A stretch of 30,803 bases of DNA from a virus, in UHGV virus genome UHGV-0140727; one strand, 5' to 3'. Position numbers and translations under genes: made by a program. How positions within the stretch are numbered: the first letter of the stretch is position 1; every line of letters begins with the position of its first letter. Below, one piece after another: positions 13,065 through 20,455 of the stretch. Below the pieces are notes generated by a model. The model was not told where the DNA came from. It ran no database searches and saw nothing but the letters and a program-made list of their open reading frames with translations.

Positions 13065-13088
13065 AAAAAAGACGGTACAGAGACCGTC
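13065..13088 (-). terminator. Putative intrinsic terminator (minus strand) between the tRNA array and the packaging genes
   Basis: Perfect hairpin gacggt-acagag-accgtc (13071-13088) with A6 on the plus strand at 13065-13070, which is a U-run after the hairpin on the minus transcript. Confidence 0.4.
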
Positions 13089-13250
13089 AAGGAGAAACCA
13101 CAATGTACGTCAGAGACATACTGTATAAGGCTTCTTATAAAGTATAACTCTGTAAAAAAGCCCTGTCTAAAAATACTCTTCGGTAGCGAAAGGAAGAATA
13201 CTGATAGCAGGGCATTATTATTATTTTAATTGAGAGAGAGTAAAATAACT

Positions 13251-13326
13251 TGGAGAATCCGAAGGGACTCGAACCCTTATAAACCTGTTTTGCAGACAGG
13301 CACATAGCCATTTCTGTCACGGATTC
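13251..13326 (-). tRNA. tRNA-Cys (anticodon GCA)
   Basis: Hand fold on the minus strand: perfect 7-bp acceptor (gaatccg/cggattc), T-arm AAGGG-ACTCGAA-CCCTT on the plus strand, anticodon stem CCTGT/ACAGG with loop CUGCAAA, CCA encoded. Confidence 0.75.
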
Positions 13327-13330
13327 AAAT

Positions 13331-13423
13331 TGGAGGAAGATACCAGACTTGAACTGGTACACCGATTTCTCAGCTACTGGCAGTTTAGCAAACTGCTCCC
13401 TTACCTTTTAGGGTTAATCTTCC
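13331..13423 (-). tRNA. tRNA-Ser (anticodon GCU), type II
   Basis: 93 nt. Perfect acceptor (GGAAGAT/ATCTTCC), T-arm ACCAG-TTCAAGT-CTGGT, anticodon stem GCAGT/ACTGC with loop UUGCUAA, long variable arm, CCA encoded. Confidence 0.7.
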
Positions 13424-13424
13424 A

Positions 13425-14159
13425 TTATTTCTGTAATGCGTTCTTCATTTCTGGTGTTGCAATAGTGTCAATTACACCAGTTTTACAAGCATCATCAAAC
13501 CAGTCTGGTAAGATACCTGCTAAGAACCCATTGATATTCGTTTTAAGGTACTCTGCAATAAGGGCAGCTTCTTCTTCAATCATCTGCACAACTTCATCTG
13601 CATAAGCTGTAATCTTTGAGATACCTTCATTAATCTTACTGACAGCTTGGTTAGCTAAATCAGAAACAGTATCAAGACCCTTATCAATAGCATCTTGTAA
13701 GTCACTTAACACACCATTAACACTATCTAGTGTACTGTTAATCATGTCAATAGCTTTTTGACCATACTCTGTAGCAACACCCATAATACCACTGAATGGT
13801 GTACAACCAACTTGTTCTCCTGCTGCACCCATAACATTGGAGTATCCCTTTGCTACCTGCATACGTGATGAAAACTCATCAATAGACTTTTGACCGTAGT
13901 CTGTTAAGGTCTTAGTGGTTGCTGTAGTGCTTGTCAGGCTTGTTGTAAAGCTGTTTAGAAGGACTGTTGTAAGCCCAGCAGCAACAAGTTTCTCCTTCAT
14001 TGTAGGGTCTGTTACAGAGCTAATAGAGCTTACAAGTGATGTAGAGGCAGATACGGTTCCACCGAGAACTGCTGCACCAGTAATAAGTGGGTTAGAAAAC
14101 CCTTTACCGGTTTTTAAGAGATTAAAAATCTCCTTACCTTGTTCTGTCATCTCTTTCAT
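13425..14159 (-). CDS. Hypothetical Ser/Thr-rich protein embedded between tRNA genes
   Basis: ORF track gives 13425-14222, but the first 21 codons overlap a tRNA. The internal ATG at 14157-14159 has an AAAGGTG ribosome-binding site upstream. The protein has a low-complexity Ser/Thr-rich segment and a helical C-terminal half. Confidence 0.45.
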   Translation of the reverse strand: MKEMTEQGKEIFNLLKTGKGFSNPLITGAAVLGGTVSASTSLVSSISSVTDPTMKEKLVAAGLTTVLLNSFTTSLTSTTATTKTLTDYGQKSIDEFSSRMQVAKGYSNVMGAAGEQVGCTPFSGIMGVATEYGQKAIDMINSTLDSVNGVLSDLQDAIDKGLDTVSDLANQAVSKINEGISKITAYADEVVQMIEEEAALIAEYLKTNINGFLAGILPDWFDDACKTGVIDTIATPEMKNALQK

Positions 14160-14176
14160 TAAGCACCTTTGAAATT

Positions 14177-14244
14177 GGTAGCCCAGTGGGATTTGAACCC
14201 TCTTCTCATGTTTTTCAGACACGCGCTTTAACCATATAAGCTAC
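14177..14244 (-). tRNA. tRNA-like, probable tRNA-Phe (anticodon GAA), atypical D region
   Basis: T-arm (GAGGG-TTCAAAT-CCCAC), anticodon stem-loop CGTGT-CUGAAAA-ACATG and a 7-bp acceptor with two G-U pairs are present. No convincing D-stem could be folded and CCA is not clearly encoded. Ends approximate. Confidence 0.4.
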
Positions 14245-14257
14245 TTGGACTATAAAT

Positions 14258-14333
14258 TGGGGTGACCTACGGGATTTGAACCCGTATAGACCATGTTCAC
14301 AGCATGGGTCATTACCATTTATGATAAGGCCAC
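14258..14333 (-). tRNA. tRNA-His (anticodon GUG)
   Basis: T-arm ACGGG-TTCAAAT-CCCGT (sense), anticodon stem CCATG/CATGG with loop CUGUGAA, 7-bp acceptor with one G-U pair, discriminator C, CCA encoded. Confidence 0.7.
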
Positions 14334-14364
14334 ATTTAAGGACTCTCGTAAGAATCCTTAGAAG

Positions 14365-14440
14365 TGGCAGCGGCATAAGGATTTGAACCTTAATAAGACA
14401 GCTTCAGAGACTGCTGCATTGCCAGTTATGCTATACCGCT
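14365..14440 (-). tRNA. tRNA-Gln (anticodon CUG)
   Basis: T-arm TAAGG-TTCAAAT-CCTTA, D-stem GCAT/ATGC, anticodon loop CUCUGAA on a stem with two terminal G-U pairs, 7-bp acceptor, CCA encoded. Confidence 0.55.
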
Positions 14441-14445
14441 AAATT

Positions 14446-14516
14446 TGGTACTCCATATCGGATTCGAACCGATACATAACACAGATTTTAAGTCTGGCCT
14501 CTCTGCCAATTGGAGT
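14446..14516 (-). tRNA. Compact tRNA-like gene, anticodon UAA (Leu-type anticodon, no long variable arm)
   Basis: 71 nt. Clean T-arm ATCGG-TTCGAAT-CCGAT, 6-bp acceptor plus mismatch, CCA encoded. The only anticodon-like loop is CUUAAAA on a 4-bp stem; the D-stem is 3-4 bp and shares nucleotides with the anticodon stem. Atypical. Confidence 0.4.
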
Positions 14517-14526
14517 AATGGAGCAT

Positions 14527-14602
14527 TGGCGGGGGATGTTGGAATTGAACCAACTTCTTCGATTTCAAAGACCGAGGTTTTAACCTTGTAAACTAATCCC
14601 CT
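14527..14602 (-). tRNA. tRNA-Gln (anticodon UUG)
   Basis: T-arm GTTGG-TTCAATT-CCAAC, D-stem GTTT/AAAC, anticodon stem TCGGT/ATCGA with loop CUUUGAA, 6-bp acceptor plus a terminal mismatch, CCA encoded. Confidence 0.65.
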
Positions 14603-14610
14603 TTAAATCT

Positions 14611-15168
14611 TTACTTTCTCAGTGGATGAATAAAGAATGCCAACATAACTCTTTCCCTTGAGAATGCTCTTTCTTCTGGGACAACACTTTTTAGTTTCCA
14701 TCCAATATAAATTCTCCAGTAAAACTGTTTACCAAAGACTTTAATTGATGGTATAAAAGCGAATAATCCCCAAGCATTACTGTTCCACATTAGGAGATAA
14801 CCAGTCTGATTATCTTCAGGGTCAGAACTTACGTTGATATTACCTTTCCACTTAGTCACATCTTTTACATCTCTTCCTAATACATGGTAAGAGAAGTTAT
14901 AAGCTTTGTTTCTCCAGAGCCATCCAACTCTCTGCATGTAGACACCCAGCTTACCAATCTTTCTAATCTTAGCCCATCTTTTAACGTGGCCTTCATCACC
15001 ATCAATTGGGTTGTCATATGTCTCCATCCATCTGAACCCGAAAGGTAAGTGTCCTTTCTTCTCACTGTAGAATGGAACTACGAAAGGTGCTAAGATAACT
15101 GCTAGTATTGCTGCAAGTGGTTCTAGCAAAGCTAAGAAAATCCATGAAGCATATTTTAAGTATCTCAT
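14611..15168 (-). CDS. Hypothetical membrane protein (N-terminal transmembrane segment) inside the tRNA array
   Basis: 185-aa ORF with a hydrophobic N-terminus (WIFLALLEPLAAILAVILAPFVVPF). Its start overlaps the stop of the upstream 80-aa ORF in ATGA fashion (15165-15168). Confidence 0.5.
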   Translation of the reverse strand: MRYLKYASWIFLALLEPLAAILAVILAPFVVPFYSEKKGHLPFGFRWMETYDNPIDGDEGHVKRWAKIRKIGKLGVYMQRVGWLWRNKAYNFSYHVLGRDVKDVTKWKGNINVSSDPEDNQTGYLLMWNSNAWGLFAFIPSIKVFGKQFYWRIYIGWKLKSVVPEERAFSRERVMLAFFIHPLRK

Positions 15169-15407
15169 TGTCTAACCCTCGTAAGGAGGTAAGCATTATT
15201 ACTTGTTTCTGAGCTTTCTGGTAACATTGTCTCAAAATTGACACTTTTAAGTTGTCTTCCACCAAAGCAATGACCAATAAATCTTTCTACTTTTATTGGG
15301 TCGCATTCCCATCCGACTTTTAAGAAAATGTGGGTATCTATAGTGGGAACCCTTACAAACTCAATACTATTGGGATTTTCATGTTCAACGACGATTAATG
15401 TTTGCAT
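15165..15407 (-). CDS. Hypothetical protein, first gene of a two-gene operon inside the tRNA array
   Basis: 80-aa ORF with an AGAGGA ribosome-binding site 5 nt upstream of the ATG at 15405-15407, translationally coupled to the downstream membrane protein. Confidence 0.45.
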   Translation of the reverse strand: MQTLIVVEHENPNSIEFVRVPTIDTHIFLKVGWECDPIKVERFIGHCFGGRQLKSVNFETMLPESSETSNNAYLLTRVRQ

Positions 15408-15425
15408 AAATTCCTCTTGCTTATC

Positions 15426-15501
15426 TGGCGCAGGATAAGGGATTCGAACCCATACTAACAGTTTCGTAGACTGTTGCTCTATCCATTTGAACTAATCCTG
15501 C
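15426..15501 (-). tRNA. tRNA-Arg (anticodon ACG)
   Basis: Perfect 7-bp acceptor (GCAGGAT/ATCCTGC), T-loop TTCGAAT, perfect anticodon stem ACAGT/ACTGT with loop CUACGAA, CCA encoded. Confidence 0.75.
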
Positions 15502-15615
15502 TTACCTACGAGAACACCATACAGTTTTTCACAAACTTTGTTTTTACGTCTGTTTAGATATGACGCTCTAAACTTTTTTGCGATGGACTTATCACTCATA
15601 GTGCTCTCCTAAAAT

Positions 15616-15693
15616 TGGTGTTCCAAGACGGATTCGAACCGTCACTAATACAAGGTTTGAGCTTGCATCCTCTGCCAATTGGGATACTGGAAC
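15616..15693 (-). tRNA. tRNA with anticodon CAA (Leu-type anticodon, short variable region)
   Basis: T-arm GACGG-TTCGAAT-CCGTC, 7-bp acceptor, discriminator A, CCA encoded, anticodon stem GCAAG/CTTGT with loop CUCAAAC. Variable region is only about 6 nt, so it is not a canonical type II Leu tRNA. Confidence 0.5.
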
Positions 15694-15694
15694 A

Positions 15695-15769
15695 TGGTAC
15701 TCACTAAAGGACTTGAACCTTTTTCTTCATCTTGTAAGGGTGATGTTTTACCATATAAACTAAGCGAGT
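15695..15769 (-). tRNA. tRNA-Val (anticodon UAC)
   Basis: T-arm AAAGG-TTCAAGT-CCTTT, D-stem GTTT/AAAC, anticodon loop CUUACAA on a stem with one mismatch, 7-bp acceptor with one G-U pair, CCA encoded. Confidence 0.65.
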
Positions 15770-15864
15770 GTGAAAGAGGTCTGAAGTTGTGCCGCTAACT
15801 CAACTCCGTGGAATTTGTTACGGTCTTCAGTTGACACCAGCGGTCTTTCACTTGACCCCTGAAT

Positions 15865-15940
15865 TGGTGCTCCCACAAGGATTCGAACCCTGATAAGTTG
15901 CTTACAAGGCAACCGTAATAGCCAATTATACGATAGGAGC
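15865..15940 (-). tRNA. tRNA-Thr (anticodon UGU)
   Basis: Perfect anticodon stem GTTGC/GCAAC with loop CUUGUAA, T-loop TTCGAAT, 7-bp acceptor with one G-U pair, CCA encoded. Confidence 0.75.
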
Positions 15941-15946
15941 ATTATT

Positions 15947-16021
15947 TGGAGCATCCAGAGGGAATCGAACCCTCAACCTCAGTTTGGAAGACTGTAATTT
16001 TCCCGTTTAAACTATGGATGC
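15947..16021 (-). tRNA. tRNA-Gly (anticodon UCC)
   Basis: Perfect acceptor (GCATCCA/TGGATGC), T-arm GAGGG-TTCGATT-CCCTC, anticodon loop CUUCCAA, CCA encoded. Confidence 0.7.
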
Positions 16022-16027
16022 ACTAAT

Positions 16028-16103
16028 TGGTGGAGTCACTGAGAATTGAACTCAGTTCCCAAGTTTGCAAAACTCGAATTTTAACCATATAAACTATGAC
16101 CCC
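16028..16103 (-). tRNA. tRNA-Ala (anticodon UGC)
   Basis: T-arm CTGAG-TTCAATT-CTCAG, anticodon stem CGAGT/ACTTG with loop UUUGCAA, acceptor with one G-U pair, CCA encoded. Confidence 0.65.
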
Positions 16104-16109
16104 ATTTTT

Positions 16110-16185
16110 TGGTACAGGTGGAGGGAATTGAACCCATCGTCTTACTGATTAAGAGTCAGCCGCATAACCATTTTGCTACACCTGC
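16110..16185 (-). tRNA. tRNA-Lys (anticodon CUU)
   Basis: T-loop TTCAATT, anticodon stem GCTGA/TCAGT with loop CUCUUAA, 7-bp acceptor, CCA encoded. Confidence 0.6.
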
Positions 16186-16192
16186 ATTAATT

Positions 16193-16270
16193 TGGTAGGA
16201 GACAAGGGATTCGAACCCTCAAACATCTCGTTCTAAGCGAGATAGGTTTACCAATTACCATCAATCTCCC
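16193..16270 (-). tRNA. tRNA with anticodon UAG (Leu-type anticodon, short variable region)
   Basis: Perfect anticodon stem TCTCG/CGAGA with loop CUUAGAA, T-loop TTCGAAT, D-loop with a TTGG signature, discriminator A, CCA encoded. The 5-nt variable region makes it a type I architecture despite the Leu anticodon. Confidence 0.55.
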
Positions 16271-16352
16271 ATTAAATCTTTTTAGAGAACTTCTAAGAAC
16301 CTAAGCAACAAGGTTCCACAACAAGCTGTAATAACCTTAGAAGCCCTCTAAA

Positions 16353-16371
16353 AAGACCTAAAAAGGTCTTT
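16353..16371 (-). terminator. Weak hairpin, terminator-like, inside a 250-nt tRNA-free spacer
   Basis: Hairpin aagacc-taaaaa-ggtctt flanked by A/T runs on both sides (16350-16354, 16369-16371). Orientation ambiguous. Confidence 0.3.
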
Positions 16372-16527
16372 GCATAGTCTTGTTTAATCCGGTGACTAGA
16401 ACCTTTGGAGAGCTTGATATTATCTCTTCTCCGTGACACCTACTAGGTGCTTTATCAGTGCGTACAACAATACACGCGGTATACCAAAGCAACATCCGAA
16501 TGAAGCTTGGCTTTAAATCTTATTAGG

Positions 16528-16615
16528 CGGTAAGTAAAGGAGTCGAACCCTCACCGTATCTCTACAGTGGCAACAGTTTTCAAGACTGTTTGGCTGCCAT
16601 TAGCCGCTACCTACC
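16528..16615 (-). tRNA. tRNA-Ser (anticodon UGA), type II
   Basis: 88 nt. Perfect anticodon stem ACAGT/ACTGT with loop CUUGAAA, long variable arm, T-loop TTCGACT, 7-bp acceptor with one G-U pair. CCA is not encoded. Confidence 0.65.
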
Positions 16616-16628
16616 CCTAATAAGACTT

Positions 16629-16711
16629 TGGCATGGGACGGAGGAGTTGAACCCCTTTGAAACGGTTTTGGAGGCCGTTGCTCATGCCTTAGAGTCTTAA
16701 CATCGTCCCAT
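16629..16711 (-). tRNA. tRNA-like, probable tRNA-Trp (anticodon CCA) with extra nucleotides between acceptor and D-stem
   Basis: Perfect 7-bp acceptor (ATGGGAC/GTCCCAT), CCA encoded, T-loop TTCAACT, anticodon loop CUCCAAA. About 10 nt lie between the acceptor and the D-stem where 2 are expected. Confidence 0.45.
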
Positions 16712-16848
16712 ACTATAATTCGAAGCTTACCCTGTTATCTCAACACTGTCAAGCTTCTTCTCAGATTATTTACATGTTCTGGAAAACATGAGATACAGAC
16801 CACCTCCCTACAGGAAGACCCGCTAAGGCCGTCTAAGTAATCTGCTAA

Positions 16849-17196
16849 CTAATACTTTGCATGTCTTACCCTATGGCAATTTGAACATAGCAAAACACAT
16901 TTGTCAAGTTCATCTTTTAGTTCTTGAGAGAACTTCAGACTTTTTCTATGACCAATGTTAAAATCTTTCTCTGAAGGATTCAAATGATGGAAGTCATACA
17001 CTGCTGGATGATACCTTTTACCACAATCATGACAAACCCCACCTTTGTACTCAATAGCTGAAAGTTTAAGTGCTCTTTGTCTTTCTATGGTTTGCTCATT
17101 AACACACTTTTTACAGTATGAATGAGTTCTCTTACCATCTTTCATGTAGAAATCATTTTCATCCTTGCTAAGTTTGCACCTAATACAAGTTTTCAT
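16849..17196 (-). CDS. HNH endonuclease (homing-endonuclease-like) embedded in the tRNA array
   Basis: N-terminal CxxC...CxxC zinc-finger-like cysteines, then the HNH signature (DFHHLNPSEKDFN ... CSNCHRVRH). ORF track start at 17247 overlaps a tRNA; the ATG at 17194-17196 has a GGAG ribosome-binding site 5 nt upstream, giving 115 aa. Confidence 0.75.
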   Translation of the reverse strand: MKTCIRCKLSKDENDFYMKDGKRTHSYCKKCVNEQTIERQRALKLSAIEYKGGVCHDCGKRYHPAVYDFHHLNPSEKDFNIGHRKSLKFSQELKDELDKCVLLCSNCHRVRHAKY

Positions 17197-17210
17197 GATT
17201 TCTCCAAAAT

Positions 17211-17292
17211 TGGTCGAGGCGGCAGGACTCGAACCCGCATACTCCACTTACTCGGTTAACGGCGGTTTAGAAGACCGCTGAGATACGCCCCG
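17211..17292 (-). tRNA. tRNA-like gene, anticodon unresolved (candidate loop CUUCUAA would give Arg UCU)
   Basis: Clean T-arm GCGGG-TTCGAGT-CCTGC, 7-bp acceptor with one G-U pair, CCA encoded. A perfect stem GCGGT/ACCGC carries loop CUUCUAA, but the remaining nucleotides do not give a canonical D-arm and variable arm. 82 nt. Confidence 0.4.
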
Positions 17293-17540
17293 TAATTATC
17301 TTTAAAGACTCTCTTAGAAAGCCCTTAGAGATGCCCACCTTATTAATCATACCGTGGGCTAGTACGCCAAATTCTTTGATGAGGGATTGGAAGACCTCAC
17401 TGGTGTTTAGCCTATCAAGCTACTGCCAGAAAAACATTGTCGTTTGCATTTATTTTAAATTTGCAAAATAGACGCTACGCAACGAAAACTAAGGTTACTA
17501 TAAAGTAGTCACATCTCAATGTCAACAACTTTATTGAAAT

Positions 17541-17615
17541 TGGTTGTAGGTGAGGGTATCGAACCCTCTTCTAACGGTTATCAGCCGTTTGCATTACCAT
17601 TTATGCTAACCCACA
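17541..17615 (-). tRNA. tRNA-Ile (anticodon GAU)
   Basis: Perfect D-stem GCAT/ATGC, perfect anticodon stem AACGG/CCGTT with loop CUGAUAA, T-arm GAGGG-TTCGATA-CCCTC, CCA encoded. Confidence 0.75.
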
Positions 17616-17617
17616 AT

Positions 17618-17694
17618 TGGAGGTTCAGATGGGAATCGAACCCACATTCATAGGGCTTATGAGACCCTTGCATTACCTTATCTGCGACTGAACC
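17618..17694 (-). tRNA. tRNA-Met (anticodon CAU; elongator or Ile2-type not distinguishable)
   Basis: Perfect acceptor (GGTTCAG/CTGAACC), anticodon stem AGGGT/GCCCT with loop CUCAUAA, T-loop TTCGATT, CCA encoded. G1-C72 pair argues against an initiator. Confidence 0.65.
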
Positions 17695-17698
17695 ATTT

Positions 17699-17774
17699 TG
17701 GTAGAAGTGGAGGGATTCGAACCCATCGCCTGTCAGATTAAAAGTCTGCCGCATCACCATTCTGCTACACTTCC
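17699..17774 (-). tRNA. tRNA-Lys (anticodon UUU)
   Basis: T-loop TTCGAAT, anticodon loop CUUUUAA, 7-bp acceptor, CCA encoded. Confidence 0.65.
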
Positions 17775-17916
17775 ATTAAATTATATTTGTAGATAAGCTA
17801 CCCAGACTTGCTTAAGGTCTGTAGCGATGTGTCTTTTCGGGTTAAATCTAGAATCTACCCTTCCACCTTTGTGGTCGCATACTCACAGGTAAGCTTAATA
17901 ACTTATCTACAAAGAT

Positions 17917-18057
17917 AATTACCAGACCGTTGTTTATCATCTTAAGTGCTACCATTACACCAACTCGACATCTGCCGAGTGAAGGAATCGAACCTTCGCC
18001 TTTTCTTTACCGGAGAAATAGATTGTTTAAGTTTTGCTGTAAACGGTCTTCTGTAAA
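17917..18057 (-). ncRNA. Structured RNA element A: conserved bulged closing helix enclosing a permuted tRNA-like module (Y-RNA-like candidate)
   Basis: Sense strand: 5' TTAC-AGA-AGACCGTT (plus 18040-18055) pairs with 3' AACGGTCT-G-GTAA (plus 17920-17932). Between them, in order: T-arm GAAGG-TTCGATT-CCTTC (plus 17971-17987), a 7-bp acceptor-like hairpin closed by a 4-nt loop (plus 17953-17970), and a D-arm-like GTGTAATGGTAGCAC (plus 17936-17952). No anticodon arm. Confidence 0.45.
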
Positions 18058-18063
18058 TTTGTT

Positions 18064-18145
18064 GAGCCAGACCAAGTTTTAAATTTTTCAAAATTAAATT
18101 GGCTTGAAAATATCATACGTACTTGCTGTATTTGGTCTTCTGCTC
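18064..18145 (-). ncRNA. Structured RNA element B (paralog of A, C, D)
   Basis: Same helix architecture with compensatory changes: outer GAGC/GCTC, 5' AGA opposite 3' G, inner AGACCAA/TTGGTCT, conserved TACAGCAA at the start of the enclosed loop. Confidence 0.4.
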
Positions 18146-18203
18146 CTTTAAAGGATACTCGTAAGAACCCTTTAAGGGAGGGGCTAAATAGCCCTCTCAA
18201 AAT

Positions 18204-18281
18204 TGGCGGTTACGAAGGGATTTGAACCCTCATCATCTCCCGTGACAGGGGAGTATTTTAACCAAATTAAACTACATAACC
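18204..18281 (-). tRNA. tRNA-Asp (anticodon GUC)
   Basis: Perfect anticodon stem CTCCC/GGGAG with loop CUGUCAC, T-loop TTCAAAT, acceptor with one G-U pair, CCA encoded. Confidence 0.75.
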
Positions 18282-18286
18282 TTTAT

Positions 18287-18374
18287 TGGTGTGCCGTGTA
18301 GGAGTCGAACCTACCGAGTCTCAATGACAAGGGATTTACAGTCCCCACCGCTACCATCTACGGGATAACGACAC
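18287..18374 (-). tRNA. tRNA-Tyr (anticodon GUA), type II
   Basis: 88 nt. Anticodon stem GGGGA/TCCCT with loop CUGUAAA, long variable arm, perfect T-stem GTAGG/CCTAC, 7-bp acceptor with one G-U pair, CCA encoded. Confidence 0.7.
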
Positions 18375-18383
18375 ATTTAAATT

Positions 18384-18460
18384 TGGCGGTTAGTCAGGGA
18401 TTCGAACCCTGTGCCATTCGCTTAACAGGCGACCGCACATACCTTATGTGCTTCCTAACC
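18384..18460 (-). tRNA. tRNA-Asn (anticodon GUU)
   Basis: Perfect D-stem GCAC/GTGC, anticodon loop CUGUUAA, perfect T-arm CAGGG-TTCGAAT-CCCTG, CCA encoded. Confidence 0.7.
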
Positions 18461-18470
18461 ATGTTTAGTA

Positions 18471-18543
18471 TTACCAGACCGTATCTTTCAATTTTTTCCG
18501 CTAAAAATTTAATAAATATTGCTGTAAACGGTCTTCTGTAAAT
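18471..18543 (-). ncRNA. Structured RNA element C (paralog of A, B, D)
   Basis: 5' strand is identical to element A over 24 nt (TTTACAGAAGACCGTTTACAGCAA). It pairs with 3' ACGGTCT-G-GTAA (plus 18471-18482): outer TTAC/GTAA, inner AGACCGT/ACGGTCT, enclosing about 40 nt. Confidence 0.4.
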
Positions 18544-18544
18544 T

Positions 18545-18621
18545 TGGAGGCGGGTGCAGGAGTCGAACCTGCCGATACCATGCTAATGAGACATGTGAGA
18601 CGCCCTTTCTCTATACCCGCA
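18545..18621 (-). tRNA. tRNA with anticodon CAU (Met, initiator or Ile2-type not resolved)
   Basis: Perfect T-arm GCAGG-TTCGACT-CCTGC, D-stem GAGA/TCTC, anticodon loop CUCAUUA (U at position 37 is unusual), 6-bp acceptor with a 1-72 mismatch, CCA encoded. Confidence 0.55.
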
Positions 18622-18629
18622 ATTCTTAA

Positions 18630-18709
18630 TGACCAGACCAAATCTCTTCTATGTCCGATTTACCTTCAGATGAATAAGATTAAGTTTGCTGTAATTGGTC
18701 TTCTGTCAA
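18630..18709 (-). ncRNA. Structured RNA element D (paralog of A, B, C)
   Basis: Outer helix TGAC/GTCA, 5' AGA opposite 3' G, inner AGACCAA/TTGGTCT, conserved TACAGCAA at loop start, enclosing about 50 nt. Confidence 0.4.
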
Positions 18710-18712
18710 AAC

Positions 18713-18790
18713 TGGCGTTCCAGAAGGGATTTGAACCCTCAAATATCCACTTTGAAAGAGTGGTGACTTTACCATTTTGTCTACTGGAAC
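18713..18790 (-). tRNA. tRNA-Glu (anticodon UUC)
   Basis: Perfect acceptor (GTTCCAG/CTGGAAC), perfect anticodon stem CCACT/AGTGG with loop CUUUCAA, T-loop TTCAAAT, CCA encoded. Confidence 0.75.
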
Positions 18791-18797
18791 ATTAATT

Positions 18798-18874
18798 TGG
18801 TCTCTGTTGGAGGACTTGAACCTCCGGCCTTACCGCCCCAAACGGAACGCTCTACCAAGCTGAGCTAAACAGAG
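18798..18874 (-). tRNA. tRNA-Pro (anticodon UGG)
   Basis: Perfect acceptor (CTCTGTT/AACAGAG), perfect D-stem GCTC/GAGC, perfect T-arm GGAGG-TTCAAGT-CCTCC, anticodon loop UUUGGGG with G37, CCA encoded. Confidence 0.7.
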
Positions 18875-19039
18875 ATAAACTTTTCAAACTCTATGTAACC
18901 ACTTTAACATTATTTTTTAGTGATTGTCAAGAACTTTTTTAAAATATTTTTCAGTATCTTAGAAAAGCTCTCATTTCGTTTCTATGTAGAACATATTAAA
19001 GGGTATTAAACACATTGTCAATACCCTTTTTAAAACTTT

Positions 19040-20455
19040 TTACCAGATATAACGGTCAATCATTACTGCTTTGAGCATTACGCTGATTGGGTCAAACTTC
19101 TCACCACCAAGCAGAGCTTTTAAAGTGGCTGGAGAGAAACCAGATACCATTGCTACACCGTTATCCTTAACAGATACTTCGCAAGTACCGTTACGGTTTG
19201 CTAAGTACCAGAATACCAGTTGTGGCATTTCGTATCCAGCTTTTTTGTACTTACTCTGGATTGCTTCAAAGTTTGTACGACCGTTAGCTCCATCAACCTG
19301 ATTGAACTCCATATCGGAGAAGATGATAAGCTTACTTGGCATATCTTTCTGAGTCAAGTTGTTTCTTTTACCTGTCTCAAGAATACGGTCAAAAGCTGCT
19401 TGTAAGTTAGTTGAGCCATATTCAACGTGTCGCATCACCTGACGATGACGGTTTCGTAAATCACCACTCAGTTCGATGAAGTGAGGGTTTGTTGAATAAA
19501 CCATTAACTCATTCTTAAAGCAACCTGTATTGCGTTCTGCTACATACAAGGCAAGTGATACACCAATATCCAGAGCAGTAATGGAGCCAAAATTCACCCA
19601 AGACATTGAACTTGATACATCAGACATACACAAGATGTTTTCACCTTCTGCCATCCAGTTTGGTAGTGCTTTCCACTGCTCATTAGCAACATCTGCATTA
19701 CCATACTTGACAGATTTAATCACATCGTATGGGTAAACAGCACCAGCGTTAATCTTAGTCTCACCTTTTGATAAGGACTCGATGTAAGCTTTGTAACGCT
19801 CTCCATCTTTACGGTTAAACAGTTTTTGGTAACGTGCAGCAGCAAGTGAAGGAATCTTACTGTAGTCAATCTTACCAAACTCATTAGCAGAGATTTTTTG
19901 CTCAACTGTATCAGATAGTGCAGACAACAGTGTGCGGTACTCTTTCTCACTCAAGTTGGCAAACTTGCAGAAACGTTTTACAAACTGCTTATGACGTGGT
20001 TTGACTCGTGGTAACCACTTAGCCGCCAAACCTGCTGTTGCAGGGTCTAGTAATGCTGCTTCTAAATGTTTGAAGGCATCTGTCTCGAAACGAGTACCTA
20101 CGAAGATTTTGAAGTCATCAAAACGACCAAGTTCTGCAATCTTATCCATAATGCGAAGAACCTGCGTAGACTCTAAAACTTTGTCTTCAATTGCTTGAAG
20201 CAAAACAGTTCTGAAGGCTTTACGCTCACCCATACCTTCTCGTACATCTCGCATATGAAGCAAAATACGAACTGCAACATCAACATCCTCACGCAAAGCT
20301 TTGTAGAACAGGTCTGGTAAGATTTCTACGTTGCTACGGCTTGAACCAGCAGCTTTGTAAAAGTCTACAAGAGCAGACATTGATGAAGTATGGTTTACAG
20401 CACCATTTTCAGTTCGACCTGCATGAAGGTACGCATGTTTAAATAATTCGCTCAT
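19040..20455 (-). CDS. vWA-domain protein with a helical N-terminal domain; Ro60/Rsr-like (TROVE + vWA) architecture, DUF2828-like
   Basis: 471-aa ORF. The C-terminal half has the vWA MIDAS signature in order: DxSxS (LCMSDVSSSMS), a downstream GSTN threonine, and LIIFSDME. The N-terminal ~250 aa is predicted helical. The TROVE assignment is inference from architecture and context, not from a search. Confidence 0.55.
   Translation of the reverse strand: MSELFKHAYLHAGRTENGAVNHTSSMSALVDFYKAAGSSRSNVEILPDLFYKALREDVDVAVRILLHMRDVREGMGERKAFRTVLLQAIEDKVLESTQVLRIMDKIAELGRFDDFKIFVGTRFETDAFKHLEAALLDPATAGLAAKWLPRVKPRHKQFVKRFCKFANLSEKEYRTLLSALSDTVEQKISANEFGKIDYSKIPSLAAARYQKLFNRKDGERYKAYIESLSKGETKINAGAVYPYDVIKSVKYGNADVANEQWKALPNWMAEGENILCMSDVSSSMSWVNFGSITALDIGVSLALYVAERNTGCFKNELMVYSTNPHFIELSGDLRNRHRQVMRHVEYGSTNLQAAFDRILETGKRNNLTQKDMPSKLIIFSDMEFNQVDGANGRTNFEAIQSKYKKAGYEMPQLVFWYLANRNGTCEVSVKDNGVAMVSGFSPATLKALLGGEKFDPISVMLKAVMIDRYIW

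Follow-up and report, generated by a model that had tools for sequence, protein, structure and literature searches.

Phage T4, phage T5 and other large virulent phages carry tandem transfer RNA (tRNA) genes set amid small open reading frames (ORFs), homing endonucleases and stable RNAs without assigned function, and the transcripts of such tRNA clusters are assumed to be made early by the host RNA polymerase and matured by the RNase P of the host. The stretch of DNA analyzed here, the UHGV virus genome UHGV-0140727 (30,803 nt in its full length, hereafter the window), contains such an island on its minus strand. Its tandem tRNA genes are likewise mixed with small ORFs, a homing endonuclease and other RNAs, whereas its gene content and order differ from those of the T4/T5-type clusters, and the array is far more complete than the eight tRNAs of T4. 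The island is the conserved tRNA cluster of Felix O1-like phages of E. coli and Salmonella (Felixounavirus, Ounavirinae), with 25 cloverleaf tRNA genes and two non-canonical ones. Twenty-two tRNAs, two of them flagged as pseudogenes, were reported for Felix O1 by tRNAscan-SE together with a codon-usage argument (Whichard et al. 2010, PMC3185647), and 23 for wV8 (Villegas et al. 2009, PMC2674420). Since the array was published for Felix O1-type phages in 2009–2010, it is already known and offers nothing new in itself, being a textbook case of a virulent AT-rich phage that carries its own decoding set. Felix O1, a classic in Salmonella typing and biocontrol, belongs to a much-used group of phages whose standard annotation overlooks several RNA genes found here: a tRNA-Arg(UCU)-like gene lacking the D arm, a Trp-like gene, Y-RNA-like elements and an RNA directed at the host transfer-messenger RNA (tmRNA) are unannotated in every Felix-type record inspected.

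The 6.1 kb around the array share 94–97% nucleotide identity, over 93–99% coverage, with Felixounavirus genomes including Salmonella phage Felix O1, and the adjoining terminase shows 99.8% protein identity to many Felixounavirus members. The records of Felix O1 and vB_EcoM_D4 list matching tRNA genes in the order Pro-Glu-Met-Asn-Tyr-Asp ... Phe-Ser-Cys, flanked by an 'RNA-binding protein' gene on one side and the terminase on the other, and ARAGORN finds the same 25 genes in both genomes. The likeness to the Felix O1/wV8 cluster thus covers genes, order, strand and flanks, with the Ro60-like 'RNA-binding protein' upstream and the terminase downstream; an earlier note on this DNA had placed the array between the packaging genes and a vWA-protein gene. 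The published annotations differ in listing 22–24 tRNAs, with Ser(GCU), Ser(UGA) and/or one CAU tRNA missing in some records and with His and Tyr marked as pseudo in Felix O1, and the window has fewer HNH insertions than Felix O1. Syntenic arrays of 25–27 tRNAs also occur in distant Ounavirinae, namely Citrobacter phage Michonne, Erwinia phage Tian and Hafnia phage SPARTY, so that gene order and content are kept across genera that share only ~70–80% DNA identity.

The tRNA genes were predicted with ARAGORN, and Rfam at the gathering threshold (RF00005), relaxed to E ≤ 5 where indicated, served as a second, independent predictor. ARAGORN called 25 genes, all on the minus strand and with outermost coordinates 13251 and 18874, exactly the limits and the strand that the earlier note had drawn by hand folding, and thus without any large shortfall. 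Rfam returned 24 tRNA matches (E 1e-5 to 3e-12), 23 of which coincide with ARAGORN genes at 31–65 bits and have complete cloverleaves and an encoded CCA; the remaining match (17214–17292, 31.7 bits) was found by Rfam only. Together with this match and a degenerate Trp-like gene at 16629–16711, the ARAGORN set bears out the count of 27 given in the same note. Two ARAGORN genes have no RF00005 match: the tRNA-Tyr, whose variable arm is long and whose score with the tRNA-Sec model is 29.6 bits, and a CAU tRNA (18545–18621) that gave no Rfam match even at E ≤ 5. Twenty-five tRNAs within 5.6 kb far exceed chance occurrence.

The 25 canonical anticodons serve 19 amino acids, with Trp represented by the degenerate gene only and Arg by a canonical ACG tRNA and by UCU through the non-canonical D-armless gene. 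Four-codon boxes typically have one tRNA each with U at position 34 (Ala UGC, Val UAC, Thr UGU, Pro UGG, Ser UGA, Leu UAG and Gly UCC). Folding by hand had already recognized two isoacceptors each for Gln (CUG/UUG), Lys (CUU/UUU) and Ser (GCU/UGA), two CAU tRNAs (18545–18621 and 17618–17694) and long-armed, type II Ser (90 and 93 nt) and Tyr (88 nt) tRNAs, and all are present; three Leu-anticodon tRNAs (UAA, CAA and UAG) had gone unmentioned. These three genes (14446–14524, 15616–15693 and 16193–16270) are each only 78–79 nt long including CCA and so lack the long variable arm usual in bacterial tRNA-Leu. By eye, the CAU tRNA at 18545–18621 has the anticodon loop CUCAUUA, with a pyrimidine (U37) at position 37, and a U.C mismatch at 1:72.

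On balance, the array probably forms its own transcription unit and provides a codon-supplying tRNA set for this 39% GC phage. Host RNA polymerase would read the cluster from sigma-70-type promoters at its 5′ end, terminators would close the unit before the packaging genes, and host tRNA-processing enzymes would cut the primary transcripts to mature tRNAs. With close to one tRNA for each codon box and U as the usual wobble base, the set could supplement the host tRNA pool for A/U-ending codons that are overused relative to a host of ~51% GC (AGA, ACA, CCA, UCA, CUA, UUA, GUA, GCA, GGA and CAA). What the sequence shows directly are the genes, their order, their agreement with the published array, sites that resemble promoters and terminators, and a bias in codon use; expression, charging and a translational benefit of the array are inferred.

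Codon supply is the best-supported function, and the support is partial. The comparison of anticodons with codon usage that the earlier note had suggested was made between 7,218 codons from 34 ORFs of the window (39.3% GC) and 14,036 codons from 36 annotated E. coli K-12 genes, and it came out in favor of this function: codons Watson–Crick cognate to phage tRNAs are enriched in the phage, with a mean log2 ratio of relative synonymous codon usage (RSCU) of +0.49 against −0.45 for the others (one-sided Mann–Whitney p = 0.025). The most enriched codon is AGA, at 19.0 per 1000 codons in the phage and 1.1 in the E. coli sample (17-fold; RSCU 2.70 vs 0.13), with ACA, CCA, CUA, UUA and UCA also among the extremes. 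A codon-compensation argument of this kind was made earlier for Felix O1 (Whichard et al. 2010, PMC3185647).

Several points weigh against the array being a codon-supplying unit of its own. The top phage codons GGU, GCU, GUU, UCU, ACU, CCU and CUU are without a Watson–Crick cognate phage tRNA, and NNU codons would be readable only if the U34 tRNAs carry the uridine 5-oxyacetic acid (cmo5U) modification like their E. coli counterparts. The statistics are modest, with the p value given above and a host sample of ~14,000 codons drawn from a single 50-kb region. Promoter-like sites number 17 in total against 14.6 in shuffled sequence, which is not above expectation, and for this reason only the position and quality of three of them (two upstream of the array and one before the tmRNA-directed RNA) are relied on. 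Finally, a role in counter-defence would give the same sequence picture.

According to this second-ranked explanation, a near-complete tRNA set of its own keeps phage translation going when host tRNAs are cleaved or depleted by anticodon nucleases, by other tRNA-targeting defences or by the phage's own host shut-off, with phage copies that differ at the recognition sites. We consider it rather unlikely as the primary function, and it is compatible with codon supply. The coverage of 19 amino acids, including those of the non-rare host codons GAA, AAA, GAC, UUC and UAC, is not predicted by pure codon compensation, and the array has structurally odd members (the CAU tRNA whose position 37 is a pyrimidine, the Arg(UCU) gene lacking the D arm and the short-arm Leu tRNAs). 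Moreover, the island also holds elements related to RNA surveillance, namely a Ro60 orthologue, Y-like RNAs and the tmRNA-directed RNA, and a counter-defence role of phage tRNAs is put forward for T5-like phages in a passage of a published article (eLife 2023, PMC10264068). The codon-bias signal, however, is more simply explained by compensation.

The earlier note had further proposed that the array belongs to a late, terminase-containing unit and serves codon-demanding structural genes, which we regard as improbable. The array immediately precedes the structural and packaging genes, has their strand and orientation and matches codons that the structural genes use heavily. Nevertheless, it has strong sigma-70-like promoters of its own at its 5′ end, a hairpin with a U-run and a terminator stand between it and the terminase region, RSCU in the structural and packaging genes is the same as in the remaining window genes, and the tRNAs of Felix O1 were assumed to be transcribed early, as in T4 (Whichard et al. 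2010, PMC3185647). Co-transcription with the terminase was rejected on the promoter and terminator evidence, and the unchanged codon usage of the structural genes adds to this in leaving late-gene coupling unsupported; of that proposal, the supply of tRNAs for codon demand is the part that stands. The idea that most of the array consists of functionless pseudogenes picked up from hosts or other phages is hardly credible, because, even if His and Tyr are marked as pseudo in Felix O1, the Trp-like gene is degenerate and one CAU tRNA fails the Rfam model, 23 genes score 31–65 bits with complete cloverleaves and encoded CCA, order and content persist between genera at the DNA identities given above, and even the oddest member, the D-armless Arg gene, has compensatory changes in every helix.

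The Rfam-only gene resembles metazoan mitochondrial tRNA-Ser(AGY) in having acceptor, anticodon and T arms and only 7 nt in the place of the D arm. Its sequence is CGGGGCG UAUCUCA GCGGU CUUCUAA ACCGC (23 nt) GCGGG UUCGAGU CCUGC CGCCUCG A CCA, in which a covarying 7-bp acceptor stem (CGGGGCG/CGCCUCG) is followed by A and CCA, a 5-bp anticodon stem covaries at three pairs and the T arm (GCGGG UUCGAGU CCUGC) has a loop with UUCGA. Between the acceptor stem and the anticodon stem there is nothing but UAUCUCA, 15 model positions are deleted in the Rfam alignment, and ARAGORN made no call for this gene in the window. BLAST located the element, nowhere annotated, in Klebsiella phage Sugarland (Demerecviridae), the 356-kb phage EC.P1, Klebsiella phage DP (Vequintavirinae) and PHB05 (Justusliebigvirus). 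Across five unrelated phage lineages all proposed pairs are standard and six pairs have changed on both sides, a level that none of 500 shuffles reaches, and slid controls pair at 33–55%. The anticodon loop CUUCUAA (U33, purine 37) and UAUCUCA are invariant in these lineages, the 23-nt variable region is almost wholly so, and the G3.U70 pair is retained in four of the five while neighboring pairs vary. A UGGA within the variable region perhaps stands in for G18, G19, A20 and the D-loop contacts. The gene differs from D-armless mitochondrial tRNAs in belonging to a bacterial virus, in this conserved variable region with UGGA, in its encoded CCA and in the G3.U70 pair of most lineages.

A tRNA for Arg[AGA] was expected yet not found in Felix O1 (Whichard et al. 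2010, PMC3185647). AGA is the main Arg codon of the phage, and the D-armless element is the obvious candidate for this missing tRNA. The slot that it occupies holds an ordinary tRNA-Arg(UCU) in Michonne and in the Felix-like IMG/VR contig L119, the D-armless gene alone in L103, and the D-armless gene followed by an HNH ORF in the window, L093, Felix O1, D4 and Sugarland; in the window the HNH ORF begins 15 nt after the tRNA. These three states suggest homing-driven replacement of alleles. Our reading is that the element is a putatively functional tRNA-Arg(UCU) allele that spreads between phages, possibly aided by the endonuclease, and that it may be charged with Arg or, owing to G3.U70, with Ala. 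No description of a D-armless phage tRNA was found in a literature search; if functional, the gene would resolve the AGA puzzle of Felix O1 and represent a rare non-mitochondrial D-armless tRNA.

In E. coli tmRNA (SsrA), the resume codon lies 12 nt after pseudoknot 1, both pseudoknot 1 and the tag can be replaced, U85 and A86 set the frame, and a helix over nt 85–100 inactivates the molecule (PMC2481249). The RNA encoded at 17333–17490 of the window shares with tmRNAs, including the two-piece and permuted forms, the resume-codon consensus, a tag of the form AND...LAVA with stop codons, a helix around the stops and pseudoknots, and it differs from them in being without a tRNA-like domain and in having a 30–50 nt arm that is antisense to host tmRNA. 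Its tag region, downstream of a promoter with equivalents in L004, L006, L038 and L133, reads AAAAUAAAU GCA AAC GAC AAU GUU UUU CUG GCA GUA GCU UGA UAG and encodes ANDNVFLAVA. The resume-codon context (AAAAUAAAU joined to GCAAACGA) is a near-perfect tmRNA consensus, in which U(−5)A(−4) match U85/A86 of E. coli. At least 13 distinct tags were seen, each of 10 codons with the pattern AN[DE]xx[FYLVM]L[AM][AV]A followed by stop codons, beside the host tag ANDENYALAA and, in Salmonella, probably ANDETYALAA, and this conservation looks like selection on a translated degron. In an alignment of 28 distinct copies of the module, tested against 500 shuffles, the helix enclosing the stops and two pseudoknots 3′ of the tag are paired in 93.2% of the cells (84.1% in the shuffles, 0/500), 13 pairs have double changes (0/500), and slid controls pair at 34–40%.

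A tRNA-like domain was sought in several ways. Default ARAGORN found no tmRNA in the window or in seven related loci, the permuted tmRNA model of Rfam gave 32.5 bits on 17333–17490, below its gathering score of 47, and a scan for acceptor stems and T arms near 33 family members met only ordinary tRNAs, often tRNA-Arg(UCU), with no conserved tRNA-like partner. With relaxed settings ARAGORN called a tmRNA only by borrowing the T arm of a neighboring real tRNA. A complete permuted tmRNA that uses the T arm of tRNA-Ile, Met or Lys, as drawn by the Rfam permuted model and by ARAGORN at -ps90 and -ps80, was rejected because these tRNAs own complete acceptor stems, because the module also occurs in phages without a tRNA within 600 nt and because default ARAGORN is negative. 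The joining of the tag module and the D-armless gene into one tmRNA-like unit, prompted by G3.U70 and A73, was likewise rejected, since the two parts differ in their phage distribution, the slot in relatives holds an ordinary tRNA-Arg(UCU) and CUUCUAA is invariant.

The 5′ arm is complementary to the host tmRNA in three segments: UAGUUUUCGU is the exact reverse complement of E. coli ssrA nt 97–106, GCGACU that of nt 86–91, and UUUGCGG(G)UUUUUA matches the reverse complement of nt 68–81 at 13 of 14 positions. The conserved 5′ GUUUUCG had also been considered as an analogue of the tmRNA D-loop GGUUUCGAC, a reading that was dropped in view of the exact match of UAGUUUUCGU. In RNAduplex, the best duplex of 24 of the 28 members falls on tmRNA nt 54–106, or on nt 76–106 in Felix-type copies. 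Within nt 54–106 lie pseudoknot 1 and the A-rich upstream signal as well as the resume codon and the first five to six codons of the tag. Arms of the sipho-type copies reach −40 to −48 kcal/mol, whereas shuffled arms reach −27 to −33, and the arm of the window, ~30 nt long compared with 43–49 nt in most other phages, reaches −26.0 kcal/mol (z = −2.5). The eight displayed arms all pair more weakly (−12 to −25 kcal/mol) with their own tag region and mRNA-like domain, because the phage tags deviate from the host tag precisely in codons 4–6. Seventy-four species-representative genomes, among them E. coli, Klebsiella pneumoniae, Enterobacter, Citrobacter, Kluyvera and Kosakonia, have an exact copy of the 33-nt target core. 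Between the arm and the phage resume codon lie 11–12 unpaired nt, with U at −5 and A at −4.

Given this conservation, covariation, complementarity and distribution, the RNA is quite likely a real tmRNA-pairing RNA; its expression, pairing in vivo and use as a template are inferred. More tentatively, our results raise the possibility that it swaps the tag and so hijacks host trans-translation: the phage RNA would dock on the host tmRNA via its antisense arm and mask the host template, its own resume codon would be presented at the same distance from a structured element as that of the host, and a chimeric two-piece tmRNA would result, in which the alanylated tRNA-like domain of the host and SmpB act with a phage-specified tag. 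The main alternative is a pure antisense inhibitor of host tagging, which would be the minimum role of such an arm. The nearest case in print is the mycobacteriophage DS6A, which is cited in a passage of PMC11915505 as encoding a tmRNA without coding sequence, that is, without a tag. As cited there, DS6A would share with the present proposal a phage-encoded partial tmRNA that interferes with the host tmRNA system and would be its converse in structure, retaining the tRNA-like domain only, whereas the RNA here has only the mRNA-like domain and the antisense arm. Our literature search found no description of an antisense-armed tmRNA module free of a tRNA-like domain, only one-line mentions of an ARAGORN 'ssrA' call in two genome announcements, for Moogle and Felix O1. 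If the tag-swap proposal is true, the module would represent a new viral takeover of ribosome rescue and offer a handle on resume-codon choice.

The module is widespread and unannotated in unrelated enterobacterial phages, such as Det7 and other Ackermannviridae, ~47-kb siphoviruses (Sa179lw and Klebsiella P5026), the Schitoviridae phage Pollock, SSU5-like phage-plasmids and T5-like phages. Of 50,697 GenBank phage records covered by a dedicated search, 726 have it; they come from unrelated phage groups, and their hosts are all Enterobacterales. Among 5426 complete E. coli genomes, 338 carry the module in prophages and plasmids, with 97 places on chromosomes and 246 on plasmids; one of these copies is part of a lambdoid prophage, where it has the Q antiterminator on one side and the holin on the other. 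In the IMG/VR contigs L018, L046 and L111 (~36% GC), default ARAGORN called genuine permuted (two-piece) tmRNA genes whose tags (ANDERFLMAA, ANDNAFLMAA and ANDESAYLMAA) resemble those of the enterobacterial phage modules, which hints at a possible evolutionary source of the module. As a side observation, the sipho-type and lambdoid copies (L136 3370–3740, L004, L024, L032, L036, L058, L099 and others) have flanking cassettes, CACAACAGGTAAGAGCATT ... AGTGCTCTTTCCGTTGTGG, with imperfect inverted repeats, some of which contain a T-arm-like GGTTCGAATCC and a tRNA-like N-CC(A/G) end; these could be tRNA-like processing punctuation, Y-like RNAs or mobile cassettes.

A survey of 2014 reported modules of Ro60 and Y RNA in 22 phages, and bacterial YrlA Y RNAs were shown to combine a T arm and a D arm with an acceptor-like hairpin between them (Chen et al. 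2014, PMC4201824). The gene upstream of the array, that of the vWA protein of the earlier note (471 amino acids), is annotated as DUF2828 and DUF7788 in Pfam and as 'RNA-binding protein' in PHROG, and searches for Pfam TROVE/VWA and by sequence against PDB gave no match. Its AlphaFold (AF2) model (predicted local distance difference test score, pLDDT, 89; predicted template modeling score, pTM, 0.88) has Ro60/Rsr as its top 11 PDB structure matches, all full length with E 2e-8 to 2e-6 and followed by vWA domains, so that the protein can be assigned a Ro60 fold with high confidence on this model. Homologues number 2541 at E ≤ 1e-5, many of them in large phages. The annotation as DUF2828/DUF7788 rather than TROVE explains why the protein lies outside the 2014 survey.

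Its likely partners are four Y-RNA-like elements, E1 to E4, which share the ends ACAGAAGACC(R)..UACAGCAA and (Y)GGUCUGG and whose R:Y closing pair covaries (A:U in E1 and E3, G:C in E2 and E4). The closing stem of E4 encloses first a T arm, then a closed acceptor-like hairpin and last a D arm, as a permuted tRNA mimic of the YrlA type, and the homologue of E4 in Michonne has a compensatory 7-bp acceptor-like hairpin, even with GCCA. Like the known Ro60 (Rsr) systems with YrlA/YrlB, the locus has a gene with a predicted Ro60 fold on the same strand as, and beside, small RNAs with a closing terminal stem. It differs in that the Y-like RNAs are interleaved with true tRNA genes and that the Rsr-binding motif GNCGAAN0-1G, expected near the 5′ end, does not occur in its literal form; conserved are the ends AGAAGACC...GGUCUGG. 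Of these, the 5′ one reads ACAGAAGACC, and the 3′ GGUCUGG resembles the vertebrate GGUCCGA but on the other strand. The island hence carries, as far as the model and the folds can tell, a Ro60 and Y-RNA-type module of a known kind that is unannotated in this phage group, and this would extend RNA-surveillance modules to a large group of enterobacterial phages. The coordinates of all features are compiled in the table.

Table. Features of the tRNA and non-coding RNA island of the window and its surroundings, in order along the minus strand after the whole island
Feature	Position	Strand	Basis
Whole tRNA/non-coding RNA island, Felix O1-type tRNA cluster	13251..18874	-	ARAGORN, Rfam, comparison with relatives
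Ro60 (TROVE + vWA) orthologue (predicted), earlier 'vWA protein'	19040..20455	-	predicted fold
Sigma-70-like promoter TTGACA-17-TAATAT, upstream of array	18993..19021	-	promoter scan 10/12
Sigma-70-like promoter TTGACA-18-TAAAGT, TG extended -10, 27 nt upstream of tRNA-Pro	18901..18930	-	promoter scan 10/12
tRNA-Pro(UGG)	18798..18874	-	ARAGORN; Rfam 57.7 bits
tRNA-Glu(UUC)	18713..18790	-	ARAGORN; Rfam 60.6 bits
Y-RNA-like E1 (ACAGAAGACCAAUUACAGCAA ... UGGUCUGGU)	18632..18706	-	shared ends, fold
tRNA, CAU anticodon, atypical	18545..18621	-	ARAGORN; no Rfam match
Y-RNA-like E2	18473..18539	-	shared ends, fold
tRNA-Asn(GUU)	18384..18460	-	ARAGORN; Rfam 48.0 bits
tRNA-Tyr(GUA), long variable arm	18287..18374	-	ARAGORN; tRNA-Sec model 29.6 bits; 'pseudo' in Felix O1
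tRNA-Asp(GUC)	18204..18281	-	ARAGORN; Rfam 65.2 bits
Y-RNA-like E3	18066..18143	-	shared ends, fold
Y-RNA-like E4, YrlA-type tRNA mimic	17921..18054	-	fold; partial tRNA match 17980-18030; Michonne homologue
tRNA-Lys(UUU)	17699..17774	-	ARAGORN; Rfam 54.4 bits
tRNA, CAU anticodon (Met or Ile2)	17618..17694	-	ARAGORN; Rfam 55.6 bits
tRNA-Ile(GAU)	17541..17615	-	ARAGORN; Rfam 63.4 bits
Sigma-70-like promoter TTGACA-17-TATAGT of tmRNA-directed RNA	17497..17525	-	promoter scan 11/12
5′ arm of tmRNA-directed RNA, antisense to host tmRNA nt 76-106	17448..17490	-	RNAduplex
tmRNA-like resume codon, 10-codon tag ORF ANDNVFLAVA, two stops	17412..17447	-	sequence, Rfam alignment
Helix around stop codons and two pseudoknots, tmRNA-directed RNA	17333..17411	-	covariation
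D-armless tRNA-Arg(UCU)-like, G3.U70, A73, encoded CCA	17211..17292	-	Rfam 31.7 bits; covariation
HNH homing-endonuclease ORF, 115 aa	16849..17196	-	domain annotation; polymorphic among relatives
Degenerate tRNA-Trp(CCA)-like	16629..16711	-	tRNA-Sec model 23 bits; fold
tRNA-Ser(UGA)	16526..16615	-	ARAGORN; Rfam 31.1 bits
tRNA-Leu(UAG)	16193..16270	-	ARAGORN; Rfam 44.7 bits
tRNA-Lys(CUU)	16110..16185	-	ARAGORN; Rfam 56.9 bits
tRNA-Ala(UGC)	16028..16103	-	ARAGORN; Rfam 56.9 bits
tRNA-Gly(UCC)	15947..16021	-	ARAGORN; Rfam 59.6 bits
tRNA-Thr(UGU)	15865..15940	-	ARAGORN; Rfam 58.4 bits
tRNA-Val(UAC)	15695..15769	-	ARAGORN; Rfam 60.0 bits
tRNA-Leu(CAA)	15616..15693	-	ARAGORN; Rfam 44.0 bits
tRNA-Arg(ACG)	15426..15501	-	ARAGORN; Rfam 59.9 bits
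Two conserved ORFs (80 aa; 185 aa DUF7338)	14611..15407	-	domain/PHROG annotation
tRNA-Gln(UUG)	14527..14602	-	ARAGORN; Rfam 56.6 bits
tRNA-Leu(UAA)	14446..14524	-	ARAGORN; Rfam 47.5 bits
tRNA-Gln(CUG)	14365..14440	-	ARAGORN; Rfam 58.7 bits
tRNA-His(GUG)	14258..14333	-	ARAGORN; Rfam 53.3 bits
tRNA-Phe(GAA)	14176..14251	-	ARAGORN; Rfam 41.1 bits
Conserved ORF DUF7217, 244 aa from ATG	13425..14159	-	domain/PHROG annotation
tRNA-Ser(GCU)	13331..13423	-	ARAGORN; Rfam 46.2 bits
tRNA-Cys(GCA)	13251..13326	-	ARAGORN; Rfam 56.4 bits
Terminator region 3′ of last tRNA: long GC hairpin and U-run 13154-13213; terminator 13071-13088	13071..13213	-	

The Trp-like gene has the anticodon loop CUCCAAA (anticodon CCA), carries 7 extra nt between its acceptor stem and D stem and is mismatched at C31.A39. 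Its sequence is 97–99% conserved among Felix-like genomes, so that covariation is not assessable there; Kolesnikvirus relatives have a normal tRNA-Trp. Three ORFs without assigned function are embedded among the tRNA genes (13425–14159, 14611–15168 and 15165–15407; DUF7217, DUF7338 and PHROG 14202). DUF7217 and DUF7338 are annotated at matching places in Felix O1 and all three ORFs in D4, and the 244-aa ORF is common to Michonne, Tian and SPARTY.

Within the tRNA spacers, the hairpin AAGGRUUCUUACGAGAGUCCUUAAA occurs in three copies (14335–14359, 17301–17325 and 18148–18172), and a 22-nt inverted repeat (91%; 17779–17800 and 17899–17920) lies just upstream of tRNA-Lys(UUU). Both are possibly processing or stabilizing structures. 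The two Lys genes, tRNA-Lys(CUU) at 16110–16185 and tRNA-Lys(UUU) at 17699–17774, share 83% identity over 87 nt including flanks, which points to a duplication inside the array.

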